Origin: Candidatus Saccharimonadota bacterium
GTDB taxonomy: Archaea; Micrarchaeota; Micrarchaeia; Micrarchaeales; Micrarchaeaceae
Length of the DNA stretch: 32,000 nt
Assembly (NCBI GenBank): GCA_963698035.1
Contig: OY969114.1
Coordinates: 450,001-482,000, forward strand
Direction of reading: 5' to 3'
The translations under genes and the position numbers were made by a program. The notes beneath the pieces were generated by a model. It made no database searches, was not told the origin of the DNA, and saw only the letters and a program-made list of their open reading frames with translations. Numbering within the stretch: position 1 is the first letter of the stretch; each line of letters begins with the position of its first letter. This document shows, piece after piece, positions 9,315 through 32,000 of the stretch.

Positions 9315-9322
9315 GAGATTGT

Positions 9323-9565: not shown

Positions 9566-9606
9566 TTTGCGTCTGGAATCCCTCAGCTTAGGCAGCAGTC
9601 ACTTCT

Positions 9607-9737
9607 CAATCTGTCGAAACCTCCCTTGAGATGTTCGGCCTGCTCTTCACTATGACCCGAGAGCCGCAATACTGGCATCTGATAAAGCCGTCGAGCTGCT
9701 TTATCTTCTTCCCGCAACCTGTGCATACATATGGCAT
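9607..9737 (-). CDS. rpoP: DNA-directed RNA polymerase subunit P (Rpo12/RpoP), reading frame interrupted by an apparent 1-nt frameshift
   Basis: Own translation from the ATG at 9737 gives MPYVCTGCGKKIKQLDGFIRCQYCGSGS*, stopping at 9651-9653. Shifting back one base after the Ser codon at about 9660 continues as RVIVKSRPNISREVSTD*, with the stop at 9607-9609. The joined 43-aa product matches the RpoP pattern CxxCG...RCxYCGxR[IV]..K.RP. The span is 131 nt, not a multiple of 3. It sits at the expected superoperon position. Confidence 0.6.
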
Positions 9738-9744
9738 AGCATCC

Positions 9745-10104: not shown

Positions 10105-10108
10105 AATA

Positions 10109-10351
10109 TCACTGCTTCTTCGCGTAGTCCTGGATAAGTCTTCGGGCGACCACCCCTGCCTCTGTCGTCATCGTGTAGGCTCCTCCCGCATAGATCGTGC
10201 CGCAGTGCCTGCATCTCCAGACGCTTGTGCCGGTCCTCTTCACGGAATTCCTGCCGCACATTTCGCACTTATAGTGTGCGCTTTTGTCAGCACGCACCGC
10301 CCAGTACCTTTTTCTTATGCTTGCACCGTATCTTACACTGAAGTTGGCCAC
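10109..10351 (-). CDS. rpl37ae: Ribosomal protein L37Ae (eL43)
   Basis: RYGASIRKRYWAVRADKSAHYKCEMCGRNSVKRTGTSVWRCRHCGTIYAGGAY has the typical L37Ae Zn ribbon and flanks. Confidence 0.92.
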   Translation of the reverse strand: MANFSVRYGASIRKRYWAVRADKSAHYKCEMCGRNSVKRTGTSVWRCRHCGTIYAGGAYTMTTEAGVVARRLIQDYAKKQ

Positions 10352-10355
10352 GTTA

Positions 10356-17170: not shown

Positions 17171-17704
17171 ATGAAGAACCTAAGTGCGCAATCCGCAATG
17201 GAATATCTCATGACATATGGTTGGGCGATACTTATCATATCTATCGTTCTCGCAGCACTCTTCGCTCTCGGAGTCTTCAGCAGCAGCTCCTTCATAGGCT
17301 CATCATGCATCGCGGCATCCGGATATGAATGCTCAGCCCCGTTATTACTGCATAACGGGTATTTCACCTCTATAGTGGGCCAAGCCACCGGAAATTCGTG
17401 GACTGCAGCAAATATAATATTTGTAGTTTCTGGCAGCTCTGTACCAACAAACCCGATACCCTCTCCTACCTTAAGCTGTGTTGAAGCCCCAGCAGGCGGT
17501 ATTCTCGCAAACGGCGGATCATTTACAACAGCGTATAATGGTGCTTATTATAACGGCGCGTGTTACGGGTTTGGAACACCCCAAGTGCCAGGCGGCATTA
17601 CTATAGGTTCAACTATAGTTGGATCGCTCTGGGCCTCATATAGTATAGGTTCAGCAAGTGGTCTATTTTCACAAATAGCAACAGTAACACTGAAGACCAC
17701 ATAA
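17171..17704 (+). CDS. Class III signal peptide / type IV pilin-like protein, divergent paralog P0
   Basis: Starts at the ATG at 17171 (the ORF track starts at a GTG at 17150). It has a short leader (MKNLSA) and then QSAMEYLMTYGWAILIISIVLAALFALGVF: Q+1 and E+5 followed by a hydrophobic helix. The C-terminus ends IATVTLKTT. It shares the first ~60 aa and the last ~10 aa with the four array genes. Confidence 0.75.
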   Translation: MKNLSAQSAMEYLMTYGWAILIISIVLAALFALGVFSSSSFIGSSCIAASGYECSAPLLLHNGYFTSIVGQATGNSWTAANIIFVVSGSSVPTNPIPSPTLSCVEAPAGGILANGGSFTTAYNGAYYNGACYGFGTPQVPGGITIGSTIVGSLWASYSIGSASGLFSQIATVTLKTT

Positions 17705-17998: not shown

Positions 17999-18030
17999 TA
18001 ATAAAAAGATTATGAAACAAAGGATAATGT

Positions 18031-18116
18031 GCCGGGGTCGCCTAGTGGTAGGGCGGCAGCCTGCTAAGCTGTTTAGTCAGCAATGGCTTCCGCGAGTTCG
18101 AATCTCGCCCCCGGCG
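18031..18116 (+). tRNA. tRNA-Ser (anticodon GCU)
   Basis: Hand-folded cloverleaf: acceptor GCCGGGG/CCCCGGC; D arm GCCT-AGTGGTA-GGGC; anticodon arm GCAGC-CTGCTAA-GCTGT; 19-nt variable arm (AGTC...GGCT stem); T arm GCGAG-TTCGAAT-CTCGC; discriminator G. No encoded CCA. Confidence 0.85.
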
Positions 18117-18165
18117 ATAATGTGTTGAATAAAAGGAAAACCGTTGTGGCAGAAAAAGATAACTA

Positions 18166-18627: not shown

Positions 18628-19899
18628 TCAGTACCAGCCCCGCGCCTTCATCGCCTTGGCAACCCTGTCGACCGCGATTATGTAGGCGGCCATCCTCGGG
18701 TTTATCTTCTGGCCATTCGCTGCATAGGATTTCTGCATTGCAATGGTGTCGTTGAATGATTTTGTTATCTTCTTGTCCAGCTTCGCGTTGAAGAGGTCGA
18801 TGTCCCAGTAATCACCAGTTATATTCTGCACCCATTCATAGTACGATCCTATCACGCCTCCGGAATTGACCAGGAAGTCTGGCAGGTCTAGTATCCCTTT
18901 CTCGAAGAGTATACCTGTCGCCTCCGGCGTCACCGGACCATTCGCCAGCTCCAACAGGAGCTTGCACTTAATTTTGTCGGCGTTGTCCGCCCTTATCTGA
19001 TTCTCTATCGCAGCCGGTATGAGGATGTCGACCTTCAGCTCGAGGAGCTCCTCGTTTGACACCTTCTCGGCCTTCTTGCCCTTGTAGCCCAGCACGCTGC
19101 CTGTCCTTTTCTTCGCCTCGTCCAGCTTTGCAAGGTCCAGGCCGTCGGGGTCATAGATTCCGCCCTCGGAGTCGCTTATCGCCACAACCTTCGCCCCCAG
19201 CATCTCCTTCGATAATGTATAAGCGTACCTTCCCGCATTGCCAAAGCCCTGCACAGCGATTGTTGCCTTCTTGGGGTTAAGCCTGAGCGCCTTCGCCGCC
19301 TCCCTCATCACAAACATGCTGCCCCTGGCGGTCGAGTCCATCCTACCTTCGCTACCCCAGATCTCGACGGGCTTTCCTGTTATCACGCCGAACTGGCTCT
19401 TCCTCACAATGTTTATATACTCATCGAGCATCCAAGCCATTATCTGGGGGGTTGTGTATACATCTGGCGCAGGTATGTCGACCTCTGGGCCGATGTCGGT
19501 GCCAAGCGCCCTCACATATGCCCTGGATAGCGCTTCTATGTCTTTATCATTCATCTTCTTCGTGTCGCATATGATACCCCCCTTGCCTCCACCGAAGGGT
19601 ATGTCTGCTAGCGAGCACTTCCATGTCATCCACGCAGAAAGCGCCTTTACAGTATCGAGACTCTCCTGCGGATGGAACCTTATGCCCCCCTTTGCTGGGC
19701 CCCTAGCATCATTATACCTGACGCGGAAGCCAGTGAAGAGCTGCGTTTTGCCATTGCTCATCTTTACAGGTATGTTCATGACAAGGACGCGCTTCGGCTC
19801 CCTGAGTATAACATGTGCCTGCCTGTCCAGCTTCATTATCTCCGCCGCCTCATCGAGCTGCTCTTGCGCAATCTTGAATGGATTGAGTTCCTCTGCCAC
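18628..19899 (-). CDS. gdhA: Glutamate dehydrogenase
   Basis: GPAKGGIRFHP, PFGGGKGG and the Rossmann GFGNAG are the Glu/Leu/Phe/Val dehydrogenase signatures. 423 aa. Confidence 0.95.
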   Translation of the reverse strand: MAEELNPFKIAQEQLDEAAEIMKLDRQAHVILREPKRVLVMNIPVKMSNGKTQLFTGFRVRYNDARGPAKGGIRFHPQESLDTVKALSAWMTWKCSLADIPFGGGKGGIICDTKKMNDKDIEALSRAYVRALGTDIGPEVDIPAPDVYTTPQIMAWMLDEYINIVRKSQFGVITGKPVEIWGSEGRMDSTARGSMFVMREAAKALRLNPKKATIAVQGFGNAGRYAYTLSKEMLGAKVVAISDSEGGIYDPDGLDLAKLDEAKKRTGSVLGYKGKKAEKVSNEELLELKVDILIPAAIENQIRADNADKIKCKLLLELANGPVTPEATGILFEKGILDLPDFLVNSGGVIGSYYEWVQNITGDYWDIDLFNAKLDKKITKSFNDTIAMQKSYAANGQKINPRMAAYIIAVDRVAKAMKARGWY

Positions 19900-20003
19900 T
19901 TATTCACCCATTGAAATCAGATGCAGAAGATATTATTAAGCTTTTATTCTGCTGCAGAACGCAAGTAAAATAATTGCTATCGCTCCGTCGGCGAAGCGGA
20001 AGG

Positions 20004-20011
20004 TTTTTATA
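20004..20011 (+). promoter_or_regulatory. TATA box of array gene P1
   Basis: TTTTTATA lies about 36 nt before the ATG at 20044. GGTGA (Shine-Dalgarno-like) lies 6-7 nt before the ATG. Confidence 0.5.
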
Positions 20012-20043
20012 CCTGTTCTCTGTTTGATGTAAAGGTGAATTTA

Positions 20044-20583
20044 ATGTTCTCCAAAAGAGGCAACTCCAAAGCCCAGTCAGCAATGGAATATCTGATGACA
20101 TATGGATGGGCAATACTGATTATATCTATCGTTCTCGCAGCGCTCTTCGCTCTCGGAGTCTTCAGCAGCAGCTCCTTCGTAGGCACAACATGCATCGCGG
20201 CATCTGGATACGAATGTGCAACCCCACTACTGCACTCCGGATTGTTCACCGCTACAATAGGCCAAGCCACCGGAACTTCATGGGCAACGACCAATGTAGT
20301 ATTCATTAGTGGAGGCGGTGTACCAAGTTCGCTAGCTAACACCGTGTTTACGGGATCCGTATGTGCTCAAACAGTATCGGGTGGTCTCACAAGCGGGGCG
20401 TCCTTCACATTCACAGTCAATACCATGGCCTCGGGTACAGGTGCGCTATCATGCACCGGAGGTACATTCTTATCTACAATTGGATCGTCTTACACTGGGT
20501 CCCTATGGGCGGAGTATACGTCATCCGGTGTATCGGGTTACCAGTGGTCACAAATTGCTACAGTGACGCTGAAGGCCACATAA
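20044..20583 (+). CDS. Class III signal peptide / type IV pilin-like protein P1
   Basis: MFSKRGNSKA then QSAMEYLMTYGWAILIISIVLAALFALGVF. Conserved Cys pair TTCIAASGYEC, variable middle, conserved end YTGSLWAEYTSSGVSGYQWSQIATVTLKAT. The ATG at 20044 is preferred over the track's GTG at 20035. Confidence 0.8.
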   Translation: MFSKRGNSKAQSAMEYLMTYGWAILIISIVLAALFALGVFSSSSFVGTTCIAASGYECATPLLHSGLFTATIGQATGTSWATTNVVFISGGGVPSSLANTVFTGSVCAQTVSGGLTSGASFTFTVNTMASGTGALSCTGGTFLSTIGSSYTGSLWAEYTSSGVSGYQWSQIATVTLKAT

Positions 20584-20595
20584 ACGGCCTTCCCC

Positions 20596-20609
20596 TTTCT
20601 TTTTATTTT
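20596..20609 (+). terminator. Oligo-T tract after P1 (archaeal-type terminator candidate)
   Basis: TTTCTTTTTATTTT begins 13 nt after the stop codon. The same tract follows every array gene. Confidence 0.4.
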
Positions 20610-20627
20610 AGGAGTAGCGGAGCTGTT

Positions 20628-20721
20628 CTTGCTCCTTTTTCTGTATGCTTCCCTATAATTGTCTATGACCTCAACCTTGTTCGCAAACGGCTCCCCCACC
20701 AGAAGGCTTTTATACCTGTTC
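20628..20721 (-). pseudogene. dph2-derived relic 1 (~94 nt, homologous to dph2 positions 23084-23177)
   Basis: By-eye alignment is about 85% identical with one 1-nt indel. The minus-strand translation LVGEPFANKVEVIDNYREAYRKRS compares with Dph2 LVVEPFANKVEFIDDYREVYRGRS. Confidence 0.65.
20708..20714 (+). promoter_or_regulatory. TATA box of array gene P2 (inside the right end of relic 1)
   Basis: CTTTTATACC lies about 36 nt before the ATG at 20747. The aligned dph2 sequence reads GTTTTGTAGT, which has no TATA. Confidence 0.5.
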
Positions 20722-20746
20722 TCTGTTTGATGTAAAGGTGAATTTG

Positions 20747-21277
20747 ATGTTCTCCAAAAGAGGCAACTCCAAAGCCCAGTCAGCAATGGAATATCTGATG
20801 ACATATGGATGGGCAATACTGATCATATCTATCGTTCTCGCAGCGCTCTTCGCTCTCGGAGTCTTCAGCAGCAGCTCCTTCGTAGGCACAACATGCATCG
20901 CGGCATCTGGATACGAATGTGCAACCCCACTACTGCACATCGGAACATTCACCGCTACAATAGGCCAAGCCACCGGAACTTCATGGACATCGGCCAATAT
21001 AGTACTTGTTACAGGAGGTGCTGTACCAAGTGCCATACCTACTACTGTTTCAGGGAGTTGCTTTGTTAATGCAAATACCCTCACAAGCGGGGCGTCCTTC
21101 ACATTCACAGCCAATAGCATGAGCTTGGGCGGCTCATCCACCTCATGTGGCGGAGGTGCGTTCTCACCTACAATCGGAACGTCTTACACCGGGGCCCTAT
21201 GGGCGGCGTATACGTCATCCGGTGTATCGGGAACCCAGTGGTCAGAGATCGCTACAGTGACGCTGAAGGCCACATAA
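20747..21277 (+). CDS. Class III signal peptide / type IV pilin-like protein P2
   Basis: The first ~57 residues are identical to P1. The middle differs (…HIGTFTATIGQATGTSWTSANIVLVTGGAVPSAIPTTVSGSCFVNANT…). The end is conserved (YTGALWAAYTSSGVSGTQWSEIATVTLKAT). Confidence 0.8.
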   Translation: MFSKRGNSKAQSAMEYLMTYGWAILIISIVLAALFALGVFSSSSFVGTTCIAASGYECATPLLHIGTFTATIGQATGTSWTSANIVLVTGGAVPSAIPTTVSGSCFVNANTLTSGASFTFTANSMSLGGSSTSCGGGAFSPTIGTSYTGALWAAYTSSGVSGTQWSEIATVTLKAT

Positions 21278-21289
21278 ACGGCCTTCCCC

Positions 21290-21303
21290 TTTCTTTTTAT
21301 TTT
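21290..21303 (+). terminator. Oligo-T tract after P2
   Basis: Same TTTCTTTTTATTTT tract as after P1. Confidence 0.4.
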
Positions 21304-21321
21304 AGGAGTAGCGGAGCTGTT

Positions 21322-21415
21322 CTTGCTCCTTTTTCTGTATGCTTCCCTATAATTGTCTATGACCTCAACCTTGTTCGCAAACGGCTCCCCCACCAGAAGG
21401 CTTTTATACCTGTTC
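21322..21415 (-). pseudogene. dph2-derived relic 2
   Basis: Same sequence as relic 1, read directly. Confidence 0.65.
21402..21408 (+). promoter_or_regulatory. TATA box of array gene P3
   Basis: CTTTTATACC lies about 36 nt before the ATG at 21441. Confidence 0.5.
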
Positions 21416-21440
21416 TCTGTTTGATGTAAAGGTGAATTTG

Positions 21441-21989
21441 ATGTTCTCCAAAAGAGGCAACTCCAAAGCCCAGTCAGCAATGGAATATCTGATGACATAT
21501 GGATGGGCAATACTGATTATATCTATCGTTCTCGCAGCGCTCTTCGCTCTCGGAGTCTTCAGCAGCAGCTCCTTCGTAGGCACAACATGCATCGCGGCAT
21601 CTGGATACGAATGTGCAACCCCACTACTGCACTCCGGATTGTTCACCGCTACAATAGGCCAAGCCACCGGAACTTCATGGGCAACGACCAATGTAGTATT
21701 CATTAGTGGAGGCGGTGTACCAAGTGCGTTAACTGCCGCCATGTTTACAGGGGTCGGGACCACATGCGCTCAAACAGTATCAGGCGGTCTCACAAGCGGG
21801 GCGTCCTTCACATTCTCAGTCAATAGCGTAGCCTCGGGTACAGGTACGCCAACATGTCCTGCCGCAAGCGCGTTAGGATCTGCAATTGGAAATTCTTACA
21901 CTGGGTCCCTATGGGCGGAGTATACGTCATCCGGTGTATCGGGTTTCCAGTGGTCACAGATCGCTACAGTGACGCTGAAGTCCACATAA
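21441..21989 (+). CDS. Class III signal peptide / type IV pilin-like protein P3
   Basis: Same N-terminal ~95 aa as P1. The middle differs (ALTAAMFTGVGTTCAQ…GTGTPTCPAASALGSAIGNS). The end is conserved (…FQWSQIATVTLKST). Confidence 0.8.
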   Translation: MFSKRGNSKAQSAMEYLMTYGWAILIISIVLAALFALGVFSSSSFVGTTCIAASGYECATPLLHSGLFTATIGQATGTSWATTNVVFISGGGVPSALTAAMFTGVGTTCAQTVSGGLTSGASFTFSVNSVASGTGTPTCPAASALGSAIGNSYTGSLWAEYTSSGVSGFQWSQIATVTLKST

Positions 21990-22001
21990 ACGGCCTTCCC
22001 C

Positions 22002-22015
22002 TTTCTTTTTATTTT
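22002..22015 (+). terminator. Oligo-T tract after P3
   Basis: Same TTTCTTTTTATTTT tract as after P1. Confidence 0.4.
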
Positions 22016-22033
22016 AGGAGTAGCGGAGCTGTT

Positions 22034-22127
22034 CTTGCTCCTTTTTCTGTATGCTTCCCTATAATTGTCTATGACCTCAACCTTGTTCGCAAACGGCTCC
22101 CCCACCAGAAGGCTTTTATACCTGTTC
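22034..22127 (-). pseudogene. dph2-derived relic 3
   Basis: Same sequence as relics 1 and 2, read directly. Confidence 0.65.
22114..22120 (+). promoter_or_regulatory. TATA box of array gene P4
   Basis: CTTTTATACC lies about 36 nt before the ATG at 22153. Confidence 0.5.
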
Positions 22128-22152
22128 TCTGTTTGATGTAAAGGTGAATTTG

Positions 22153-22701
22153 ATGTTCTCCAAAAGAGGCAACTCCAAAGCCCAGTCAGCAATGGAATAT
22201 CTGATGACATATGGATGGGCAATACTGATTATATCTATCGTTCTCGCAGCGCTCTTCGCTCTCGGAGTCTTCAGCAGCAGCTCCTTCGTAGGCACAACAT
22301 GCATCGCGGCATCTGGATACGAATGTGCAACCCCACTACTGCACTCCGGATTGTTCACCGCTACAATAGGCCAAGCCACCGGAACTTCATGGGCAACGAC
22401 CAATGTAGTATTCATTAGTGGAGGCGGTGTACCAAGTGCGTTAACTGCCGCCATGTTTACAGGGGTCGGGACCACATGCGCTCAAACAGTATCAGGCGGT
22501 CTCACAAGCGGGGCGTCCTTCACATTCTCAGTCAATAGCGTAGCCTCGGGTACAGGTACGCCAACATGTCCTGCCGCAAGCGCGTTAGGATCTGCAATTG
22601 GAAATTCTTACACTGGGTCCCTATGGGCGGAGTATACGTCATCCGGTGTATCGGGTTTCCAGTGGTCACAGATCGCTACAGTGACGCTGAAGTCCACATA
22701 A
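22153..22701 (+). CDS. Class III signal peptide / type IV pilin-like protein P4 (identical to P3)
   Basis: The ORF-track translation is identical to P3, and the nucleotide sequence looks identical on inspection. Confidence 0.8.
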   Translation: MFSKRGNSKAQSAMEYLMTYGWAILIISIVLAALFALGVFSSSSFVGTTCIAASGYECATPLLHSGLFTATIGQATGTSWATTNVVFISGGGVPSALTAAMFTGVGTTCAQTVSGGLTSGASFTFSVNSVASGTGTPTCPAASALGSAIGNSYTGSLWAEYTSSGVSGFQWSQIATVTLKST

Positions 22702-22713
22702 ACGGCCTTCCCC

Positions 22714-22727
22714 TTTCTTTTTATTTT
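22714..22727 (+). terminator. Oligo-T tract after P4
   Basis: Same tract as after P1. The shared 3' flank ends at 22743, 17 nt before the dph2 stop codon. Confidence 0.4.
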
Positions 22728-22759
22728 AGGAGTAGCGGAGCTGATCTTTATATTGCCGA

Positions 22760-23689
22760 CTAGTTCCTTGCCCTCAGCTCTGCGAGTTCCTTCTTCATCT
22801 GCAGGGCCTCCATCAGTTCGTTCGCGCTTAGGAGCGGCTTTCCGATGCGGTCGTAGTCATCGATGGCAATCCTGGGACATGCGGTGTTGACAAAAGCATC
22901 AAACTCCCTCATATTCTGCAATGATGTGAAATCAAAGGTGTTCGCCACGAGTATCTCCGCTTTCAGGCCGCGCCTCTCAATCTTCTCTTTTATTATCTTC
23001 GCCAGCGCCATGTTGTGCTGGCCGTTCTTTGTGCTGAGCATTACGCCAAAACTCTTCGCCTCAAGGGTCGCTATCACCTTACCCCTGCTCCTTCCCCTGT
23101 ATACTTCTCTATAATCGTCTATAAACTCAACCTTGTTCGCAAACGGCTCCACCACCAGGAAGGGTTTTGTAGTGTTCAGCAGCGCGCCCAGCGGATGGAA
23201 CATCCCTCCGCCAAAGTAGACGAATGCGTCCACATCCCTGTCTATGGTCGCTGCGCTGCCGATGTCGCAGCCCAATATCTGCCCGCGCTTCTTTGCGAAT
23301 CCGTAGGGCTTCCCGACCACTACCTTCTTGCCGTGCTTTTCGTAGAAGCCCACCAGCTCATCAAGCTGGTGTATGTGCTGTATTGTTGTAACAATCCCGA
23401 TTGTAGTGTATCCCGAAAGCGGCTCGAGCGACCTGTCGAGTATCTCCAGGGGCGCGTCTATGTTGTATTCAATATACTCGACATCAAAGTCTACCTTCTG
23501 GAACTCTGCATGGCCAAAGTGAATTATCCTGTCGGCATGGATGCTCTTCGCTTCATCGAGTGCAAGGTCGCACGCTCCAAAGGTCGGAGATGCAGATATG
23601 AAGACCTCGTTGCCTTTTGCCTCCAGTGCCTTCGCATACTCCAAGGCGTGCTGCTTTAGCCCTTCAGGAAACTGGAGAAGTAATCGCAT
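22760..23689 (-). CDS. dph2: Diphthamide biosynthesis protein Dph2 (2-(3-amino-3-carboxypropyl)histidine synthase)
   Basis: MRLLLQFPEGLKQHALEYAKALEAKGNEVFISASPTFGACDL, with later GCDIGSA and VNTACPRIA cysteine motifs, is typical of archaeal Dph2. It starts 8 nt after rpl10e. Confidence 0.88.
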   Translation of the reverse strand: MRLLLQFPEGLKQHALEYAKALEAKGNEVFISASPTFGACDLALDEAKSIHADRIIHFGHAEFQKVDFDVEYIEYNIDAPLEILDRSLEPLSGYTTIGIVTTIQHIHQLDELVGFYEKHGKKVVVGKPYGFAKKRGQILGCDIGSAATIDRDVDAFVYFGGGMFHPLGALLNTTKPFLVVEPFANKVEFIDDYREVYRGRSRGKVIATLEAKSFGVMLSTKNGQHNMALAKIIKEKIERRGLKAEILVANTFDFTSLQNMREFDAFVNTACPRIAIDDYDRIGKPLLSANELMEALQMKKELAELRARN

Positions 23690-23696
23690 CCTACCA

Positions 23697-24242
23697 CTAC
23701 GACGCAGCGCTTTTCTGTATCTGCTTTGTATTTATCTTATAGCTTCCTGATAGCTTCGACATAGCCCTCTTCAGTGCATGCTTTGCCACTTTCGCATTCT
23801 GGCCGCCCGTCCTCACCATAAGGATCGGCTGCCCCGGCCTTATCCGCGCAGCTATCGAGACCGGCTTGCCAAACGCATTTACCTTCATTCCCTGCGATAT
23901 CCTGTCGGCGCCCGCCCCCGTTGCCATCTTGTGTTCCCTTATGACGTTGTGAGGGTAGACCTTCACCGTGAACAAGTACTGCCCCGGTATATTCATCTCG
24001 AGGAACTTGTTCGCCACCAGCCTCGCAGCCTCGAGGGAGTTCGACCTGAGCTGTATCGGCACCTCGCTGTTCAGCGTGTATTCAGAGTCGTAGCTCTTGC
24101 TCTCTACGCCCATCTTGAAGACCAGCAGGCTTGTATGCGGAAGAGCCCTTATGTAGTTCTTCCTCGGCCTCCTGAGCGAGTATCTCGCCCATGCCTGCGA
24201 ATTTGGTGTCCTGCATGTTCTTGCAGGCCTAAGTCTTGCCAT
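23697..24242 (-). CDS. rpl10e: Ribosomal protein L10e (uL16)
   Basis: ARLRPARTCRTPNSQAWARYSLRRPRKNYIRALP and the ~180-aa length fit archaeal L10e. Confidence 0.92.
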   Translation of the reverse strand: MARLRPARTCRTPNSQAWARYSLRRPRKNYIRALPHTSLLVFKMGVESKSYDSEYTLNSEVPIQLRSNSLEAARLVANKFLEMNIPGQYLFTVKVYPHNVIREHKMATGAGADRISQGMKVNAFGKPVSIAARIRPGQPILMVRTGGQNAKVAKHALKRAMSKLSGSYKINTKQIQKSAAS

Positions 24243-24379
24243 TCTAAAAACCTTAAACAGAAGAAGCAGCTTCCGTCAGTATTATTCTCCCGAAAAGCTA
24301 TAAAAATGCGATGGTAGGCCCCATCATCCAATTCAATAATCTATTTATAACTTGCCAGAGATATAGCAGCAGTGGTGGA

Positions 24380-25414
24380 ATGGAGCTTGTAGACAGTGCA
24401 TTGAGCATGAACTCGAGCACATCGGATGAATTATTCAAGGCGCGCATAGCGGTATGCGGTGTAGGCGGAGGAGGCAGCAACACCGTGCAGAGGCTCAGCA
24501 GGATGGGGATAAAGGGTGCGAGTCTGATAGCGATAAACACGGACAGGAAGCATCTCAATACGCTAGACCCAAGCATAAGGCGCATACTCATAGGAGAGGC
24601 GCTGACAAGGGGCCTAGGCGCAGGAGGGTTCCCAGAGGTGGCAAACAAAGCCGCCCAGGCTGCAAAGAATGAGCTCGAGAGCGCCCTGCAGGATTACAAT
24701 CTGGTATTTGTCACAGCCGGGATGGGGGGCGGAACCGGAACTGGGGCGTCGCCCGTCGCAGCCGAGATAGCGAAGAAGGGAGGCGCAATCGTCATAGGAA
24801 TAGTCACATTCCCATTCGCGCTTGAGAGGGTGAGAATACAGGTTGCGAAGAAGGGGCTCGAGTCGCTGAGAAACAATATAGACACGCTGATAGTGATCGA
24901 CAACCAGAGGCTCGTCGATCTATATCCCAACGTCGCGATGGAGCAGGCTTTCAAGATCGCGGACGAGGTGACTGCAAGGGCTGTCAGGGGAATAACAGAG
25001 ACGATAAACACGCCGAGCCTGATAAACCTTGATTATGCTGACGTAAGGACTGTTATGGGATCCGGAGGCCTCGCTATGATAAGCGTAGGTGAGGGGACGG
25101 GACCGAATAAGATAGAGGATGTGGTGCGGGACACTCTCAAGAACAAGCTGCTCGACGTCGACTATGAGGGCGCGACCAGCGTGCTCCTCCACATAACCGG
25201 CGGAGAGGACCTGACACTCGGAGAGGCAAACGAGATAGGGACCAAGCTTACCGAGATGACCGCGCCGAACGCCACGGTCGTATGGGGTGCGAGGATTGAC
25301 CCCACATACAACGGAAAGGTGGAGGCGATAGCGATATTCACAGGTGTGAAAAGCGAATCGATAATGGGCACAAATAAGGTAAGCACGAACGATTACGGCA
25401 TCGGAAGCCTATAA
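24380..25414 (+). CDS. ftsZ: Cell division GTPase FtsZ
   Basis: [10 protein letters not shown] and the tubulin signature [12 protein letters not shown]. The ATG at 24380 is preferred because it follows TTTATAA (24344-24350) and GGTGG. The ORF is open from 24311. Confidence 0.93.
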
Positions 25415-27718
25415 TTCGGTAACCACCGTAGAGCCGCCAGCCGCCTTGTCCCTGTCGAATTGGTAGATCTTTGCGGATGCTATCTGCTTCAGGCTGTCGT
25501 CGTGGGTTATTATGAAGACCTGTTCTACCACGCGCGGCAGCGCGTCGCTCAGAACGCTTATCAGTTTCGCTATGCCGTTTGAATCTACGTTGTGGGTCGG
25601 CTCATCTAGTATAAGCCACCGGAGGTTCGGCACGATCACCATGGAGAGCGCTATCCGCATCGCAAGGCACGCTATGCTGCGCTCCCCCCCGCTTGCTGTA
25701 GCGTCGACAGGAACCCATTCTTCAGTCCCACCTATGCTTATGCAGCTCTCGAGAAGGTAATCGTCTGGCCGCGCCTCAAGTCGGAGCCCCGTGTAATCCT
25801 CATACGGGTATATCTCTGGCCAGATGCTCTGCAGCAGGCTGTTTATCGAGCGGATGAGCCGCGTCCTGAGCATCGCCGCGGTCTCGGTGAGAGCGGACTT
25901 GAAAAGGTTTAGGCTCTTTACAAGCGACCTTCTTGACTCAGCTCTCTGCTCAAGCTCCCTTATTCCGTCTATCTGCTTTACAAGGGATGATATCCCGGAG
26001 TCAAGCGTGGCTATCTGCCTGTCGTTCCCTGTGACTACCGCGCCGAGGTTGGCCAGCGTAGCGCTCTCCTTCGCAAGCGAGTCCTGCAGGAAGTCCATCT
26101 CGTCCTGGCTCACCTTTATCGAATCAACTTCAATGCGGCTCTTCTCCGCGAGCTCCGAATATCTTTTTAAATCTGCCTCGTGCTCCAGCCTCTTCTTGAA
26201 GAGCTCCGATGCCGCCCCCAGTTTCTGTATCTTCTCGAGCAGCGATTCACGTTCCGACTTCGCCCTCTTCAACGCATCTGCAAGCTCGGCAGCCTCCTTA
26301 TCCACCGACTTGAGCTTTGCGGAGTTCGCCTTTACCGCATCGTCCATATTCAAGTAGTCCTTCAGCCTGCTGGCGGCGAGCTCCAGAGATGCCCTCTCGT
26401 CATCAAGCCTCTTTATCGCGGATCTCTTCTCCGATATCGCCTTTGAGGATTCGTCTGCAGAGCTCTTCAGGGCCCTCATCTCGCCATCCTTTATCGCCAT
26501 GAGCTTGCTCCGCAGCGCATCATCGAGCTCCCTCTCGCAGACGGGGCACTTTGCAAGGTGCTTTTTCAGCTCCTTCATATATAAGTCGATATCCGAGAGC
26601 CTGCTCCGCGCCTCCGCCTCAATATTTATCAGTTCTGCAAGCGTGGAGTTGTGCTCCTCCAGCGCCCTCTTCAACGATGCAGGGTCTTTCCCCTTCAGCT
26701 GCGCCAGCAGGATGTCTCTTTCCTGGGCTCTCTTCCGGTCATTTGATAGGAGCGCCTCGAGCACGGAGGCCACCTTGAGGAGCTCCTTCTCCCTCCTCTC
26801 TCCCTCTACTATCGCCTCCCTCAGCTGCCTCTCCCCCGCCCCGGAAGATGCGCTCTCATTTTTCAGCCCCGCTGCATCGATGCCCTTCGTAGCAGAATCT
26901 ATCTTCTCGGTCTCTGCCTTCAGAATCTGGAGCTTTCCGCCTATCTCTATTAGCTGCCTGGACAGCTCCTCCTTCCTTCTATAGGCCTTCCTCTGCTCCT
27001 CTATCTTGGAGGTCAGCCCCTTATGCAGCTTGCTCTGTTTTTCGTACTGCGCCTTAAGCCCCTCCTGCGCCTCCACTATCGCTTCCTTCTCTGCAGCGTC
27101 CTTCTCCAGCTGCTTCTTGAGCGACGCGACGTCCATTCCCGACAGCATTTTTTCCCCGTCCGATATCATCGACTTGAGGTTGTTTATTAGGGAGGTGCAG
27201 TTCTCCTCCGCGGTTGAGAAGTGGTCCAGCCCCAGCATTCCGTCGATCTGCTTCTTCCTGTCGCCTTTCGGTATGCTCAGGAAGTAATCAATCCCGTTCT
27301 GCTCCGCATATATCGCCTTAGTGAAGGTGTCATAGTCGACCTTCAGGAGTCCGCATATCTCCTCATTCACGCGCTGCGGCTGCGTCTGCAGGCATTCCCC
27401 ATTCTTCTCCAGCCTGGCCAACGCGCTGCCCGATGAAGAGAATCGCCTTGTTACCGCGTAGCTGTCGCTTCCCATCAGAAAAGAGAGCCTGACCTCCGCC
27501 TCATCCTCTTTCTTTGGTCTGTTCTTTATCGCATTCTCAAGCTTGAGCCTCCTCTGCTTCAGCGCGGGGTAGGTGCCGTAGAGGGCGAAGCAGATTGCAT
27601 CCATCACCGAGCTCTTGCCGGCCCCCATTATACCGATAAGCACGTTCACTCCCTTCCGGAAGGAGAGCTTTGTCTGACTATGCGTCTTCCAGTTGTATAG
27701 TTCTATTCCGCTCAGCAT
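25409..27718 (-). CDS. rad50: Rad50-type SMC-like ATPase with zinc hook
   Basis: Walker A GIMGAGKSS; a long Glu/Lys/Leu-rich coiled-coil middle; central CPVC hook (KCPVCEREL); signature ASGGER; Walker B LILDEPT; ITHD at the C-terminus. Confidence 0.88.
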   Translation of the reverse strand: MLSGIELYNWKTHSQTKLSFRKGVNVLIGIMGAGKSSVMDAICFALYGTYPALKQRRLKLENAIKNRPKKEDEAEVRLSFLMGSDSYAVTRRFSSSGSALARLEKNGECLQTQPQRVNEEICGLLKVDYDTFTKAIYAEQNGIDYFLSIPKGDRKKQIDGMLGLDHFSTAEENCTSLINNLKSMISDGEKMLSGMDVASLKKQLEKDAAEKEAIVEAQEGLKAQYEKQSKLHKGLTSKIEEQRKAYRRKEELSRQLIEIGGKLQILKAETEKIDSATKGIDAAGLKNESASSGAGERQLREAIVEGERREKELLKVASVLEALLSNDRKRAQERDILLAQLKGKDPASLKRALEEHNSTLAELINIEAEARSRLSDIDLYMKELKKHLAKCPVCERELDDALRSKLMAIKDGEMRALKSSADESSKAISEKRSAIKRLDDERASLELAASRLKDYLNMDDAVKANSAKLKSVDKEAAELADALKRAKSERESLLEKIQKLGAASELFKKRLEHEADLKRYSELAEKSRIEVDSIKVSQDEMDFLQDSLAKESATLANLGAVVTGNDRQIATLDSGISSLVKQIDGIRELEQRAESRRSLVKSLNLFKSALTETAAMLRTRLIRSINSLLQSIWPEIYPYEDYTGLRLEARPDDYLLESCISIGGTEEWVPVDATASGGERSIACLAMRIALSMVIVPNLRWLILDEPTHNVDSNGIAKLISVLSDALPRVVEQVFIITHDDSLKQIASAKIYQFDRDKAAGGSTVVTEL

Positions 27719-27783
27719 AAAATCAGGGGAATTATATGTCCTGTTAAAATTATTTAAGGGTTGCGCAGGATATGGATGATAAG

Positions 27784-28032
27784 CTAAATCAGGCTTTCGT
27801 CCTCCACTTCGACTTCCCCGACCAAGTCACTCTTCTTTATCTGCTCCTCAATCTTCGAGGAGCTGTTCTGCGTGTCATCAAAGACGAACCTCGCCTTCAG
27901 CACCTTTATGCCGAATGCAACATCCATGGGCTGCACCGCTACCGGGTCCATTCCCTTTATCACTGCCGCCAATGCCTCTATCGCAACCCCGTCAGCCGGG
28001 TAAATCTTAAAGGTTACAGATGCTCTGGACAT
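27784..28032 (-). CDS. ef1b: Elongation factor aEF-1 beta
   Basis: 82 aa. VTFKIYPADGVAIEALAAVIKGM…VAFGIKVLKARFVFDD…IEEQIKKSDLVGEVEVEDE fits aEF-1beta. The ATG at 28032 overlaps the upstream stop (TGATG). Confidence 0.85.
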   Translation of the reverse strand: MSRASVTFKIYPADGVAIEALAAVIKGMDPVAVQPMDVAFGIKVLKARFVFDDTQNSSSKIEEQIKKSDLVGEVEVEDESLI

Positions 28033-28202
28033 CAAGGACCCTCAAATCCGCACTCTTTGCACTTGTATATGTTGGATATCTCGCGGCAGTGGTAGCACCT
28101 TATTACGGTGCCCTTCCCGCACTTCGGGCACTTGAATTCGGTATACTCGCTCGTAAGCCTGCCGCACGACACGCATTCCTTGCCGGGTAAAATAGGAATC
28201 AA
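28032..28202 (-). CDS. Small double Zn-ribbon protein (COG2888-like, usual neighbour of aEF-1beta)
   Basis: CVSCG…CPKCG…CYHC…CKECG gives four CxxC pairs in about 56 aa. The proposed TTG start at 28202 follows AGAAGGTG and a minus-strand TTTTATAA box at about 28222-28229. The longer track ORF to 28289 overlaps the upstream gene. Confidence 0.7.
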   Translation of the reverse strand: MIPILPGKECVSCGRLTSEYTEFKCPKCGKGTVIRCYHCREISNIYKCKECGFEGP

Positions 28203-28239
28203 AACACCTTCTAGCACTCTCTTATAAAAGCATTTAAGG

Positions 28240-30075
28240 CTATCGCCTGCGCCTTCTTCTTCTTGCGCCTGCCTTTCTCTGCCTTGCATGCTTCGTGATA
28301 TTTGAGAGCTTTAGCAGTATAATGAAGTCCACCGCGAGTATGACAACCACGATAATGAGTATGATGTATACTAGGGCCCGGATGCCGCCCAAATTCGATA
28401 CCGGCTTGGTCGTCTGCGCAATCGTGGTCGTTGTCGGTCCGGGAGCAAGGTTCTTGTATATCACCATGCTGTCGTTGCCCATCTGCTGCGCGAGCACTGC
28501 CGCTGTATAAGCCTGCAATGCATAACCGTGGGCCGTTGTGGCGTTGGACGTCAACTGCGATTCATGTACGAAAAACTCCGCCTCGTTGGAGTACTGAGTT
28601 GCCCATGCCCCGTATGTTGAGTTTACGGCGATAGCGAGCGACATGCTGTTAAGCTGCGAGGTGCTGGCGTTTGCCTCGTAGAGGCCCGAAAGGCCGTCAG
28701 CATACGCGTAATCCGCATCGACTATGGCAAGCGGATAGTTGTATGCGCTGTATGCATTTTCTGCCGTGTCAAGATACATGTTGACGCCATAAGACGACGC
28801 CCTATTTATCCTGGACTGCGCGATGGAGGATAGATTCTGGGATGCAGATGCGCTAGCCCCGCCAACGGATGATGCAGAGCCGTACATGTAGTTGGCTGCA
28901 TGGCACCACCCCTCCGATTCTCCCGCGCCGTAGAGCGATGAGAGAACCTCGTCAGTGTCGAACGAGCTTGAGTTGTAAGCACTTATGGCAGCGGACGACG
29001 TATAAGTCCCCCAGCTCTGCCTTAGCTCTCCCTGTACCACCCACTCACAGTTCTGTGTAGTCAACCGCGGTGGAGCCAGCGCGCTGCAGTAGTTGTAGGT
29101 CTGCTGGAGTGTCGTGAGCCCGCTTGCCACGGTGGCATTGCCGTTTGAGAAGTAGAATGCGTTTATGTAGGTGAGGAAGCTCACGTCGCCAGCGACATAA
29201 AGGTAGCCCTTTGATGCTATGCTCTTGCTCTGGTTGACCTCCTGCTGCATCTGCGCCACAGTAATGGGGTAGAGATTGGACGGGACCACGGATATCTGCG
29301 CGGCAGTCGAGTTTATGGTGTAGTTCGCGAGCCCTGCGAAGGGCGCCATGGAGCATCCGTTGCTGCAGCTGATGTTCGCCTGCAGCACAAGTGGGACCTG
29401 AAGGCTTGTATAAAGCTCGAGCGTAGTCGACTGGCCCGCTATAGATCTCTTGCCGAATGCGTACTGGGCCGCTGCGCTTATGTTTACAACCTGGACCAAC
29501 GGAATTCCGAAACGGCCCTGCACAAGGTAATAGAGCTCGTTCTCCTGGCTGCTCTGCGGAACAGCGGGTACCAAAATAAACTCCATCCCGGCATTCGCAG
29601 CCGCTGCGCTCTTATCGTACACACCTCCTATCGCCCCCACGGCTCCGTTGTTTATAGTTCCTGTTATAGTGAAATTTGGGACCAGCGCAGTCTTCGATAG
29701 TACGGATATAGCAAGTATCGTCATGGCAGCTCCGGCGCTAGGCCCCGACACATTCGCATCCCGCTCGTCTATGTTGTAGACGAAGTTATACTGACTGAAG
29801 TTCTTGCCTAGGAAGCTCGAGGCGTACATTGCGGCCGACTCCGCGGACTGCTGCGTATTGTTCGCAACGTACGCAGGCCCAGTGATGGTGACGGACCCTC
29901 CGCCCTGTGTCACCGTCAGGGATATCCTTGTGAGCTGCCCTGTATTGTTCGCAAGGTTGACCGATGGCGCCAATATTGATGCGCTGCCTACTGCGAACTG
30001 CGCAGCCGTGCACTGCGCCAGGAAGCCCAGAACCATAAGCAGCGGCAGTAGATAGAGTACTCTTGCTCGAAGCAT
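28240..30075 (-). CDS. Exported, C-terminally membrane-anchored Lon-type (S16) Ser-Lys protease domain protein with a large uncharacterised region
   Basis: Signal-peptide-like N-terminus (LYLLPLLMVLGFLAQCTAAQ). VSGPSAGAAMTILAISVL, with IGGVYDKSAAAANAGMEFILVP 42 residues later, mirrors the Lon catalytic Ser and Lys motifs (DGPSAG ... IGGxxEKxxAAxxAG). There is no AAA+ module. About 380 aa of Ala/Ser/Tyr/Asn-rich sequence carries many sequons. The C-terminus is a TM helix plus ARRRRRRR. Confidence 0.7.
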   Translation of the reverse strand: MLRARVLYLLPLLMVLGFLAQCTAAQFAVGSASILAPSVNLANNTGQLTRISLTVTQGGGSVTITGPAYVANNTQQSAESAAMYASSFLGKNFSQYNFVYNIDERDANVSGPSAGAAMTILAISVLSKTALVPNFTITGTINNGAVGAIGGVYDKSAAAANAGMEFILVPAVPQSSQENELYYLVQGRFGIPLVQVVNISAAAQYAFGKRSIAGQSTTLELYTSLQVPLVLQANISCSNGCSMAPFAGLANYTINSTAAQISVVPSNLYPITVAQMQQEVNQSKSIASKGYLYVAGDVSFLTYINAFYFSNGNATVASGLTTLQQTYNYCSALAPPRLTTQNCEWVVQGELRQSWGTYTSSAAISAYNSSSFDTDEVLSSLYGAGESEGWCHAANYMYGSASSVGGASASASQNLSSIAQSRINRASSYGVNMYLDTAENAYSAYNYPLAIVDADYAYADGLSGLYEANASTSQLNSMSLAIAVNSTYGAWATQYSNEAEFFVHESQLTSNATTAHGYALQAYTAAVLAQQMGNDSMVIYKNLAPGPTTTTIAQTTKPVSNLGGIRALVYIILIIVVVILAVDFIILLKLSNITKHARQRKAGARRRRRRR

Positions 30076-30160
30076 TAAACCAGATTAACATCAAGATAAA
30101 TGTATAAAAGGGTTTTGTATCTCCTGTTCATTAGAAAATTGGACTCCCAACTCTTACTGT

Positions 30161-31150
30161 TCATACATGCAGTATACTGAAAAGTATCGCGTATGCAGAC
30201 ATACCTATGGCGATGCCGAAGAGCAGCGGCGGTATCGCTGGAAGCGCCCTTTTGTAGCGCCTGAGTATGTGGGTCGTAAGAAGCAGACCGAATATCGCGC
30301 CGAATATGATGAAGAAGCTCAGCACGAAGTTGAGCGTGACTTCGTACGCAGCTATGGCCACCATCAACGGTATTGCAAAGTCGCCGGTGCCGAGCTCAAC
30401 CCTCGCAACAACCGGCAGCATGCCATTTCTGTAGAGCCGAGAGAGAGTTGGATTTTTTGATATGTCGGGTCCCTCTTTCTTGTAGTCTTCCAGCTCCTTC
30501 TTGCTGAAATCGCTCCTTGGCAGAGCTTCGAACTCGCTTACGCCTACCAGGAAAGCGAGGTTCCTCGACGACATCGCCTTTGCCATGGTAATCATGTGCT
30601 TGGTTACGAAGACGGCTATGAAGTCGTAGGCTGCGAGTATGACCATGAAGATGATGGCCGCAAGGAAGCTGAAGCTTATCCCGAGGATGAGCCCCACCCC
30701 GATGCTTGCTATTATCGCAGTAGCATTCCTAAGCTTGGGCCACTTGTTCTTTGCTAGCACAAGCAGGAGCGCGCCGCCTATGCCGGCCACCAAGTTTGCC
30801 GTTATGCCCGTGCCCGCCAGATTGAACAGTGTAGAGGTGCTGATAGTGCCGAATATTACCAGGAAGACGAAGAATGAGGATATGAACACCACGGCACCTT
30901 CGAGAATCATGAAGAACTTATTTCCCCTGTATATTCTGAATAAGAATATCAGCACGACGCTGAATATCACTATATAAATGATGTAGAAGAGGGCACCTAC
31001 CGCCGACGAGACGACCTGCACGCTCTTGACCTGTTGGTAGGTGGAGCCACTGAAGACCATGCTCGCGAGCAACAGGCCGAAGAACTGCACGATCATGAAC
31101 ATTGCAAGTATCTGCAACAGCTGCCTGTTCTCTATGACCCTAAGAGGCAA
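30161..31150 (-). CDS. Presenilin/signal-peptide-peptidase-like intramembrane aspartyl protease (A22 family homolog)
   Basis: Polytopic, 329 aa. It has a YD motif (LAAYDFIAVF), a GxGD motif (ELGTGDFAIPL) and a PAL-like ALPAIPPL near the C-terminus, in the canonical order. Confidence 0.7.
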   Translation of the reverse strand: MPLRVIENRQLLQILAMFMIVQFFGLLLASMVFSGSTYQQVKSVQVVSSAVGALFYIIYIVIFSVVLIFLFRIYRGNKFFMILEGAVVFISSFFVFLVIFGTISTSTLFNLAGTGITANLVAGIGGALLLVLAKNKWPKLRNATAIIASIGVGLILGISFSFLAAIIFMVILAAYDFIAVFVTKHMITMAKAMSSRNLAFLVGVSEFEALPRSDFSKKELEDYKKEGPDISKNPTLSRLYRNGMLPVVARVELGTGDFAIPLMVAIAAYEVTLNFVLSFFIIFGAIFGLLLTTHILRRYKRALPAIPPLLFGIAIGMSAYAILFSILHV

Positions 31151-31158
31151 CCTTACAC

Positions 31159-32000
31159 CTACTCACTTTCGTGCCTTATGATTTTTATAATGCCAGGTTT
31201 TGGCCTGAATATATCGCCGCTTCTCTCAAGCTCCACTATATACTTATTGACAGTGGCAGCGTCCACTCCCGCTTTCTCGGCCTCCTCCACCAGCCTCTGC
31301 ATCTTCGCGCTGCCTTCGTCCGCCTCGAGCTTCCTTATTATGTTGAGCATCGTGTTTATCTTGTCAACCTTCTCCCTGGGCATGCCGGTTATTATCGCGT
31401 CGATGTCGTACCTGCCTCCACGATCCACAAGAAGCGTCTTAAGCATGAACTCGTTCAGTGATATCGCCACCTCCGCGTCGGCTATCTCCACCACTGACGA
31501 GAGCCTCGACTTGGCGCTCGCCTCAGCCATCCTTATTATTCCCTCTATCTGCCTCGGCGTTATTGGTGTGGCTCCCTGCTTCGCCCCCAGCTTCCTGAGA
31601 TCTATATAGTACTCCTGTATCCTCTTTGACGCCTCGACCATTATCCTCGGGAAAATGTTCTTCCTCGCATATGCTATGTACTTTCTGACGAACTCCCCCT
31701 CGATAGGCGGCCTCTCCACCTGCTCGTACTCCTGCACCTCAGATATCCTTGCCCCCGCAGCCTCGTGCTGCAGCAGTATGTGCCTAGCTATGCTTTTGTC
31801 CAGCTCGCTGTCCATTATGTCCCTTATCGGGAATATGAGGTCGAATCTTGAGAGAAGTGTAGGTGGTATGTCGAACTGCTCAGCAGGATATGCATTCGGG
31901 TCGAACCTTCCGAATTTGGGGTTTGCGGCTGCAAGCACCGCAGACCTCGCGGTGAAGGTCGCAATTATGCCCGCCTTCGCGACGCTGATTGTCTGAGACT
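31159..32000 (-). CDS. mcm: MCM replicative helicase, C-terminal part (5' end lies beyond the right edge)
   Basis: Own translation to the window edge gives …QTISVAKAGIIATFTARSAVLAAANPKFGRFD…PPTLLSRFDLIF…, which contains the MCM sensor and arginine-finger region. The track's M at 31938 is an internal GTG. Confidence 0.92.
   Translation of the reverse strand, partial: SQTISVAKAGIIATFTARSAVLAAANPKFGRFDPNAYPAEQFDIPPTLLSRFDLIFPIRDIMDSELDKSIARHILLQHEAAGARISEVQEYEQVERPPIEGEFVRKYIAYARKNIFPRIMVEASKRIQEYYIDLRKLGAKQGATPITPRQIEGIIRMAEASAKSRLSSVVEIADAEVAISLNEFMLKTLLVDRGGRYDIDAIITGMPREKVDKINTMLNIIRKLEADEGSAKMQRLVEEAEKAGVDAATVNKYIVELERSGDIFRPKPGIIKIIRHESE

Follow-up and report, generated by a model that had tools for sequence, protein, structure and literature searches.

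We describe a tandem array of pilin-like genes in a 32,000-nt stretch of archaeal DNA (positions 450,001 to 482,000, forward strand, of contig OY969114.1, assembly GCA_963698035.1, placed by GTDB in the Micrarchaeota). This whole stretch is called the window hereafter, and positions are counted from its first nucleotide. Our favoured explanation, which we hold to be probably correct, is that a conserved candidate pilin gene was amplified in tandem, with a uniform N-terminus and uniform regulatory DNA in all copies and an exposed core that differs among three co-expressed isoforms.

A repeat search of the window identified four copies of a unit, starting at 19999, 20702, 21396 and 22108 (spacings of 703, 694 and 712 nt). 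Position 22743 is the final base common to unit 4 and the internal spacers; array and flank branch after it. The array extent given in the original prediction (19999–22743), which was made from the sequence alone, is exact by both measures. Tandem Repeats Finder (maximum period 500) reported no tandem repeat in the window because the unit period exceeds its 500-nt limit. The units contain open reading frames (ORFs) on the forward strand that open with GTG (20035–20583, 20738–21277, 21432–21989 and 22144–22701; 182, 179, 185 and 185 aa). The likely start codon is, however, the ATG located nine bases inside each of them (20044, 20747, 21441 and 22153); it is favoured because it agrees with database gene calls (P0001, 179 aa) and with the MFSK... 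N-termini of homologues. The array and its genes, together with a related gene upstream, are as follows.

19999..22743, forward strand: whole tandem array, four head-to-tail units of 703, 694, 712 and 636+ nt
20044..20583, forward strand: G1, pilin-like gene, 179 aa (P0001, 100% identical); leader MFSKRGNSKA, then QSAMEYL..., hydrophobic (H-) domain and beta-sandwich
20747..21277, forward strand: G2, pilin-like gene, 176 aa (P0003); the most divergent allele, 77% identical to G1
21441..21989, forward strand: G3, pilin-like gene, 182 aa (P0002); 86% identical to G1
22153..22701, forward strand: G4, pilin-like gene, 182 aa; same DNA as G3
17171..17704, forward strand: G0, diverged fifth paralog, 177 aa (= P0037), found by motif scan and alignment; ~57% identical to G1

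Units 3 and 4 are 100% identical across 636 nt, so the array holds three distinct alleles rather than four; G4 is a very recent 712-bp duplication or possibly an assembly-inflated copy. The prediction of four pilin-like genes stands as far as four complete ORFs are concerned, while it counted one allele twice and overlooked the fifth paralog, G0. The latter has no Pfam match and lies 2.3 kb upstream of the array, with tRNA-Ser, Nudix and glutamate dehydrogenase (GDH) genes in between; the tRNA-Ser(GCT) gene (18030–18117, forward strand) is situated between G0 and the Nudix gene.

Differences between the units are concentrated in the middle of the genes. Between units 1 and 2, 79 of the 98 differences fall inside 20284–20474; between units 1 and 3, 45 of 51 fall inside 20329–20489; between units 2 and 3, 83 of 97 are clustered. 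In the maximum chi-square clustering test the observed clustering was matched in none of 200 permutations in each unit comparison. The proposed constant–variable–constant layout is thus real and non-random. The variable cores are located as follows.

20284..20489, forward strand: variable core of G1, residues ~81–148; beta strands and loops of the globular domain
20987–21183 (G2), 21681–21895 (G3) and 22393–22607 (G4), forward strand: equivalent variable cores

Synonymous and non-coding divergence shifts abruptly along the unit, as in tandem arrays that evolve in concert. Proportions of synonymous and nonsynonymous differences (pS and pN, Nei–Gojobori counts) are 0–0.02 and 0, respectively, in the first 64 codons of G1–G4, and residues 1–64 are identical. 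For residues 65–150, pS and pN are 0.175 and 0.137 (G1/G3), 0.30 and 0.29 (G1/G2) and 0.35 and 0.34 (G2/G3); the core pN/pS ratio among array alleles is ~0.8–1. The three 154-nt non-coding spacers are 100% identical. The constant ends, both described as nearly invariant in the original prediction, are not equal in kind: the first ~193 nt of the coding sequence (CDS) are identical among units, but the last 95 nt only to ~95%. An essentially identical block of ~360 nt begins ~10 nt before one stop codon, takes in terminator, dph2-derived relic (see below) and promoter, and ends ~193 nt into the next CDS.

The paralog G0 serves as a control. Over 60 aligned N-terminal codons, G1–G4 differ from G0 with a pS of 0.36–0.38 and a pN of 0.08; the N-terminal protein is nearly the same in G0, yet its synonymous sites have diverged, so constraint on the protein does not account for the identical DNA of the array. 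Protein selection alone (a pS of 0.38 at a near-same N-terminal protein) was ruled out on these grounds as the cause of the constant ends. A young duplication with fast positive selection in the core was ruled out as well, since core pS is as high as pN. The simplest account of the mosaic would be gene conversion and unequal crossover between units, the latest such recombination event presumably being the 712-bp duplication that yielded units 3 and 4. Repeated gene conversion, suspected in the original prediction, is supported by the jump in pS from 0–0.02 to 0.18–0.35, by the identical spacers and by the G0 control.

The encoded proteins have the features expected of archaeal pilins. In G1–G4 the precursor begins with MFSKRGNSKA, followed by the predicted cut and then by QSAMEYLMTYGWAILIISIVLAALFALGVF; G0 has an equivalent sequence. 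Substrates of archaeal prepilin peptidases are recognized by a short basic leader and an H-domain of ~20–25 residues (PMC4371748). The leader here is basic, with K at −2, A at −1, Q at +1 and E at +5, and a hydrophobic stretch of ~25 residues follows; a charged residue at −2, G/A/S at −1 and a cleavage site before the hydrophobic H-domain are the marks of a class III signal peptide. The class III signal peptide and hydrophobic stretch claimed for the array are seen in G1–G4 and G0, and the helix is present in the structural model. The mature proteins consist of ~30% Ser+Thr, contain four charged residues, four Cys and no N-X-S/T sequon, and are almost without tryptic sites.

An AlphaFold2 model (from a 118-sequence alignment) with a mean predicted local distance difference test score (pLDDT) of 85.8 has a helix at residues 10–36 followed by a ten-strand beta-sandwich; the globular domain modelled alone reached a pLDDT of 91.3. 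The predicted architecture, an N-terminal alpha-helix and then a beta-rich globular domain, is that of a pilin. With both models, the top match of Foldseek searches against PDB was the type IV pilin of Pyrobaculum calidifontis (8fk7_A, probability 0.98–0.99). About 40 N-terminal residues, E+5 included, are near-invariant across aligned family members, a pattern that would be typical of an assembly interface rather than of a simple anchor. We regard the array protein as the best candidate for a Micrarchaeota type IV pilus subunit. A link to the Micrarchaeota S-layer protein was rejected; that protein is a separate one of 101 kDa with S-layer domains. Thin filaments ‘that could represent archaeal pili’ were described on Micrarchaeon ARM-1 (PMC11329633), and the genome of the cultured Micrarchaeon Mia14 codes for two type IV pilus systems together with a single FlaK-like peptidase (PMC5498576).

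The protein belongs to a large family that lacks annotation. When 1.84 billion representatives (clusters at 50% identity) were searched exhaustively with a profile, 7,347 matched at E ≤ 1e-3; 3,133 of these reached E ≤ 1e-10, and 258 reached E ≤ 1e-30. A word-indexed search produced 2,327 matches at E ≤ 1e-3, all nameless or ‘hypothetical’ and none with Pfam domains; its named family matches all came from Micrarchaeota or ‘Marsarchaeota’ metagenome-assembled genomes (MAGs). The best match in a scan of genome representatives was 58–61% identical. Many matches are 450–870 aa long and carry the whole pilin module at the N-terminus, followed by DUF2341, LamG-like or PT-HINT domains. This domain layout resembles that of modular pilins and would fit the link of LamG-like proteins to type IV pilus loci in Mia14 (PMC5498576). 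One protein (P0128, 566 aa) has three family globular domains in a single polypeptide joined by Ser/Thr-rich linkers, a within-protein version of the array. In another locus (L058) two tandem 394-aa proteins (8607–9791 and 9959–11143) combine the class III N-terminus with a C-terminal PT-HINT/intein-like domain, which suggests a pilin-anchored polymorphic-toxin-like protein.

Gene order was compared in the 79 best-matching loci from species-representative genomes, a sample chosen by pilin similarity and hence biased. The genes that flank the array in the window are

18628..19899, reverse strand: GDH gene (Pfam, synteny); the conserved left flank of the site
22760..23689, reverse strand: dph2 (diphthamide synthase), intact and convergent with the array (Pfam PF01866, E 6.6e-68, full length)

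The dph2 gene was also present in 26 of the 79 loci, and in 25 of these 26 the family gene or genes were located directly upstream, converging on dph2. GDH was found on the other side in all 13 dph2-adjacent loci that also carry GDH; L10e, FtsZ and Rad50 genes lie further out in many. All of the twelve best matches (12/12) are at the GDH/dph2 site. By tblastn, dph2-adjacent loci have one copy (16 loci), two copies (7 loci), three copies (L031) or five copies (L006), compared with the four array copies plus G0 in the window; L028 has one copy by the tblastn count and two by motif scan. The five copies of L006 (8065–11140, on a 1.05-Mb contig of an uncultured Micrarchaeota genome) are in tandem at the GDH/dph2 site and more diverged, with protein identity of ~45–70% in three pairs compared. 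Since a family gene and dph2 also converge in Micrarchaeota-type MAGs at 25 other loci, gene order indicates that the GDH/dph2 position is a conserved core site and that only the copy number (1–5) is lineage-specific. One contig with the archaeal GDH/pilin-like/dph2/L10e block typical of Micrarchaeota is labelled ‘Candidatus Acidiferrales bacterium’ (L022, DATLRT010000045.1) and was probably mis-binned.

The array had been taken for the only accessory-looking island of the window, a view that does not hold given the presence of the family at the same dph2-adjacent site in 25 related loci. The rest of the window consists of archaeal core genes, such as those for SecY, HisRS, exosome subunits, SBDS, proteasome alpha, Cdc6, eIF1A, eIF2-beta, Rad50, MCM and others. 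Among its ORFs is also one of 342 aa (4562–5590, forward strand) with an N-terminal hydrophobic segment MQKAIGFITFIVIVIIMVIILY..., very many N-X-S/T sequons and no Pfam match; it probably encodes a heavily glycosylated surface protein.

Homogenisation of N-termini recurs in the family. In tandem pairs of L003, L005, L011, L028 and L031, N-terminal pS is well below mid-gene pS. An independent mosaic was seen in L060, where two copies (8337–8915 and 10001–10582; 95% identical, 1,664 nt apart) are identical in their first 300 nt, promoter included, and differ in the middle; the pair arose, in another lineage, by a separate recent duplication at the site seen in the window. The L060 copies are separated by ~1.1 kb of unrelated DNA with a 186-aa ORF, maybe a mobile-element remnant.

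The spacers retain a trace of how the array arose, a relic of dph2 that had been overlooked. The relic and the signals found in the units are

20005..20013, 20708–20716, 21402–21410 and 22114–22122, forward strand: TATA-box-like TTTTATACC, identical copies, read from the sequence
20584..20746, forward strand: spacer 1, with terminator-like hairpin, T-tract and dph2 relic, then the next promoter
21278–21440 and 21990–22152, forward strand: spacers 2 and 3, 100% identical to spacer 1
20630..20721, 21324–21415 and 22036–22127, forward strand: 92-nt relic of internal dph2, three identical copies; 79/93 identical to 23086–23177
22702..22743, forward strand: terminal T-rich terminator region; the array/flank branch follows 22743

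The source segment of the relic, 23086–23177, is inside the intact dph2, and the relic is nearer to the dph2 of its own genome than to that of other lineages (≤ ~79% identity there). At the right junction the end of the relic overlaps the promoter through a 14-nt microhomology, GGAAGG(G/T)TTTT(G/A)TA, with 12 of 14 positions identical; the sequences are ...CCAGGAAGGGTTTTGTA... in dph2, ...GCGGAAGGTTTTTATACC... upstream of unit 1 and ...CCAGAAGGCTTTTATACC... in the spacers. Such microhomology points to an illegitimate recombination by which the pilin gene and the 3′ part of dph2 were duplicated as one piece. On the left, the terminator region is fused directly to dph2 position 23086, which implies a later deletion of ~340 nt. 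The relic differs from dph2 at ~15% of positions, about as much as the gene cores differ at synonymous sites; the founding duplication was therefore not recent. In the sequence of events that we propose, illegitimate recombination would have joined the pilin promoter to the internal dph2 site at the 14-nt microhomology, an internal deletion would have left the 92-nt relic in each spacer, and unequal homologous crossover would then have altered the number of copies, with the identical units 3 and 4 as its newest product. The relic thus offers a clean record of the birth of a tandem array in an archaeal genome.

Two side observations concern the relic. In the forward strand it is antisense to dph2 mRNA, with a perfect match of 25 nt (CTCAACCTTGTTCGCAAACGGCTCC, counted by eye on the alignment); pilin transcripts that read through the spacer might, speculatively, pair with this mRNA. 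Where terminator region and relic meet there is a small inverted repeat, GGAGC-N7-GCTCC, with TTTTT after it (20619–20635, 21313–21329 and 22025–22041, forward strand), and the rearrangement that founded the array may have created an accidental second terminator-like element.

All units carry the same set of expression signals. The TATA-box-like TTTTATACC starts at 20005, 20708, 21402 and 22114, each 39 nt 5′ of its ATG, and would act as a promoter; with the usual archaeal use of a TATA box, transcription would start only ~10 nt before the ATG. The sequence AAGGTGAATTT is present in all units (at 20032, 20735, 21429 and 22141). A T-rich tract lies directly 3′ of the stop codon in each unit and is preceded, in genes 1 and 2, by a hairpin across the stop codon. 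The TATA box, the Shine–Dalgarno (SD)-like GGTGA, the ATG and the oligo-T tract that the original prediction assigned to every unit do have matching elements in all four. From a scan for bacterial-type signals we used only the hairpin and T-run matches; its sigma-70 promoter matches, located inside coding sequences and meaningless for an archaeon, were dismissed. The Rfam scan of the window found tRNA-Ser alone and no known RNA within the spacers.

In the mechanism that we favour, a prepilin peptidase of EppA/FlaK type would cut MFSKRGNSKA / QSAMEYL... before Q+1, the hydrophobic helix, which is invariant, would become part of the packed filament core, and the beta-sandwich, Ser/Thr-rich and nearly uncharged with four Cys, would form the filament surface. 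Conversion or unequal crossover would hold uniform the ~360-nt block that includes terminator, relic, promoter, signal peptide, helix and first beta-hairpin, while the ~200-nt core (residues ~81–148) would have an older, separate history of substitutions and indels. Three pilin isoforms would be made, with a common assembly interface and different exposed domains; their synthesis is probable because promoter, start codon and terminator are retained unchanged in each copy. Such a set of isoforms would raise dosage and may broaden or alter the binding of the filament, and the variation in the core may serve surface diversification. The array is a tidy case of a known mode of surface-gene evolution, not a new type of system.

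A number of results weigh against this explanation. The match to 8fk7_A is weak (E 5.3e-3 and 2.0e-2, template modelling score 0.27–0.42), none of the matches reaches E ≤ 0.001, and the other Foldseek matches are generic Ig-like sandwiches. No Pfam match was obtained at E ≤ 0.1, nor at E ≤ 10 with the N-terminus alone (PF04021 and PF07790 included); the NCBIfam search of the array proteins gave no meaningful match, and the PDB sequence-profile search gave just an archaellin (E 2.5). We therefore base the pilin assignment on signal peptide, architecture and context rather than on demonstrated homology. No prepilin peptidase, ATPase or platform gene was found among the ORFs of the 32-kb window with a Pfam match, as the absence of pilus ATPase, platform protein and A24 peptidase had been noted before, and a simple motif scan of the 79 related loci, for Walker A and for GxGD, revealed no candidate for a pilus ATPase or peptidase (the Walker A scan found only Rad50, Cdc6 and ABC-type ATPases). 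The predicted mRNA leader would be very short and the ‘SD-like’ GGTGA may lie outside the mRNA, its role being uncertain because the predicted transcript start is only ~10 nt before the ATG. The count of four units comes from a single assembly in which units 3 and 4 are identical. Finally, a core pN/pS near 1 would fit neutral drift or relaxed constraint as well as adaptive diversification.

The only GxGD protease in the window (30161–31150, reverse strand) is an intramembrane protease of presenilin/SPP type, PF06550. Proteases of this type share the GxGD catalytic class with prepilin peptidases; by its family assignment the PF06550 protein is not an A24 peptidase and is not to be mistaken for PibD/FlaK.

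Concerning the copy number, the contigs of two independent short-read assemblies from the same organism end at the edges of the array. A 1,680-bp ENA contig contains a GDH fragment, G1 and 203 nt beyond G1, and therefore crosses the relic-containing spacer into the next unit. A 16-kb Logan contig, which has one mismatch in 9,287 nt to window positions 22714–32000, begins at 22714, exactly 30 nt before the array/flank branch; this distance equals k − 1 for an assumed k-mer of 31. As both short-read assemblies break at the array, a real branching repeat must be present in independent reads. An assembly artefact, with copy number inflated or units mis-ordered (above all the identical units 3 and 4), is improbable in our judgement. 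The 100% identity of these units across 636 nt, the occurrence of the full array on one long contig only (the 776,853-bp source contig) and the breaks of the short-read assemblies could be cited in its favour; yet the breaks themselves imply a real repeat in independent read sets, the ENA contig reaches the next unit, the Logan contig terminates exactly at the branch point, a single copy cannot give three distinct alleles, and assemblers usually collapse rather than expand identical tandem repeats. Short-read MAGs should be expected to collapse or break at this locus.

The array may instead have been amplified for dosage only, to supply more of one abundant filament subunit, with neutral drift of a weakly constrained surface region as the origin of the core differences and no functional role for the isoforms. 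We consider this a less probable reading, though one to be taken seriously: promoter and terminator are the same in all copies, two of the four copies are identical, a core pN/pS of ~0.8–1 is what relaxed constraint predicts, and a single copy suffices in most relatives. It accounts poorly for the persistence of diverged arrays in several lineages (L006 has five copies, L031 three, and at least seven more have two), which suggests retention of paralogs, and for the fact that conversion halts before the core in every pair even though flanking identity would favour its spread; moreover, Haloferax pilin paralogs with one H-domain differ in adhesion (PMC4371748). More doubtful is the view that the protein is not a filament subunit and that its class III-type N-terminus is a secretion signal or membrane anchor of a small surface protein (S-layer-associated or a binding protein). 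Some archaeal substrate-binding proteins use such an N-terminus, and the same N-terminus is found on many large surface proteins; the lack of a pilin profile match, the weak fold match of what is a generic Ig-like sandwich, and the position of the genes, which are never beside pilus machinery in the loci examined, would also agree with it. On the other hand, near-invariance of ~40 N-terminal residues including E+5 is typical of an assembly interface; size, helix-plus-sandwich architecture and the top structural match agree with archaeal type IV pilins; and the Haloferax adhesion pilins are likewise unlinked to machinery (PMC4371748).

Antigenic variation of the Neisseria style, with one expressed locus into which silent donor cassettes are copied, shares with the array the constant–variable–constant layout and the signs of gene conversion, but it can hardly apply here, as no copy is truncated or promoterless: each is full length and has its promoter-like element, start codon, signal peptide and terminator in common with the others. 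An extension of the favoured explanation is that the array is a built-in diversifier of the host-contact surface in an obligate ectosymbiont, an all-copies-expressed archaeal counterpart of bacterial pilin variation; we think this unlikely as it stands. The homogenised ~360-nt blocks may then act as portable recombination substrates. If this were true, expressed pilin ‘cassettes’ would be quickly duplicated, lost, shuffled and swapped between strains, and the filament surface would track changing host envelopes.

Among known systems, PilA1–PilA6 of Haloferax volcanii appear to be the closest functional analogue. They too are small pilin paralogs with almost identical H-domains and differing C-terminal domains, unlinked to biosynthesis genes; correspondingly, residues 1–64 are identical in G1–G4, the C-terminal domain differs and no machinery lies within 32 kb. 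Each Haloferax PilA paralog can build a pilus, and adhesion differs among them (PMC4371748). In contrast to the PilA genes, the array is strictly head-to-tail and identical in DNA including the spacers, which indicates ongoing conversion; the processing signal is D/R-A|V-S in Haloferax and K-A|Q with E+5 here; and there is no sequence similarity between PilA and the array proteins.

The closest signal motif is the K/R-G/A|Q site type of the Methanococcus maripaludis Epd pilins (EpdA–E, processed by EppA; PMC4371748, Table 1), and of the two type IV pilus systems in Mia14, one falls into the Methanococci/Thermococci-type group (PMC5498576). Sequence or profile similarity to Epd pilins was not detectable, however, and QSAMEYL stands here in place of their QxSxE pattern. 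Epd pilin genes are described as lying together with their machinery. The closest structure, the flagellar-like type IV pilus subunit of P. calidifontis (PDB 8fk7), shares the N-terminal helix and Ig-like beta-sandwich; at 7–10% sequence identity and with weak scores this is a resemblance, not demonstrated homology.

Neisseria has one expressed pilin gene and silent cassettes that are promoterless and 5′-truncated. The pilE/pilS system resembles the array in being built of type IV pilin (here pilin-like) sequences with constant ends, a variable core and conversion among linked copies, and differs from it in that all four array copies are complete and have identical promoter-like elements. Tandem archaellin sets of methanogens and haloarchaea (flaB1–B3/arlB) are head-to-tail genes of class-III-signal subunits with conserved N-termini, as are the paralogs of the array. 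Archaellin genes, however, lie in or beside the archaellum operon, and the sole archaellin profile match of the array has an E of 2.5; Mia14 was reported to be without archaellum-related genes (PMC5498576). Particular to the array are the strict tandem arrangement with DNA-level homogenisation that includes spacers, the record of the founding rearrangement and a site conserved across a DPANN phylum.

Filament-subunit paralogs that have their N-termini in common are well known, and so is gene conversion between pilin copies. Micrarchaeota (ARMAN-type DPANN archaea) need physical contact with a host, and filaments have been seen on them. The array names a candidate for the subunit of such filaments, from a large family that lacks a Pfam or NCBIfam model and is encoded at a conserved site immediately upstream of dph2; the locus is dynamic, with one to five copies and recurrent N-terminal homogenisation. 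The main yield is therefore annotation of this family and a target for cryo-EM and proteomics of cultured Micrarchaeota.

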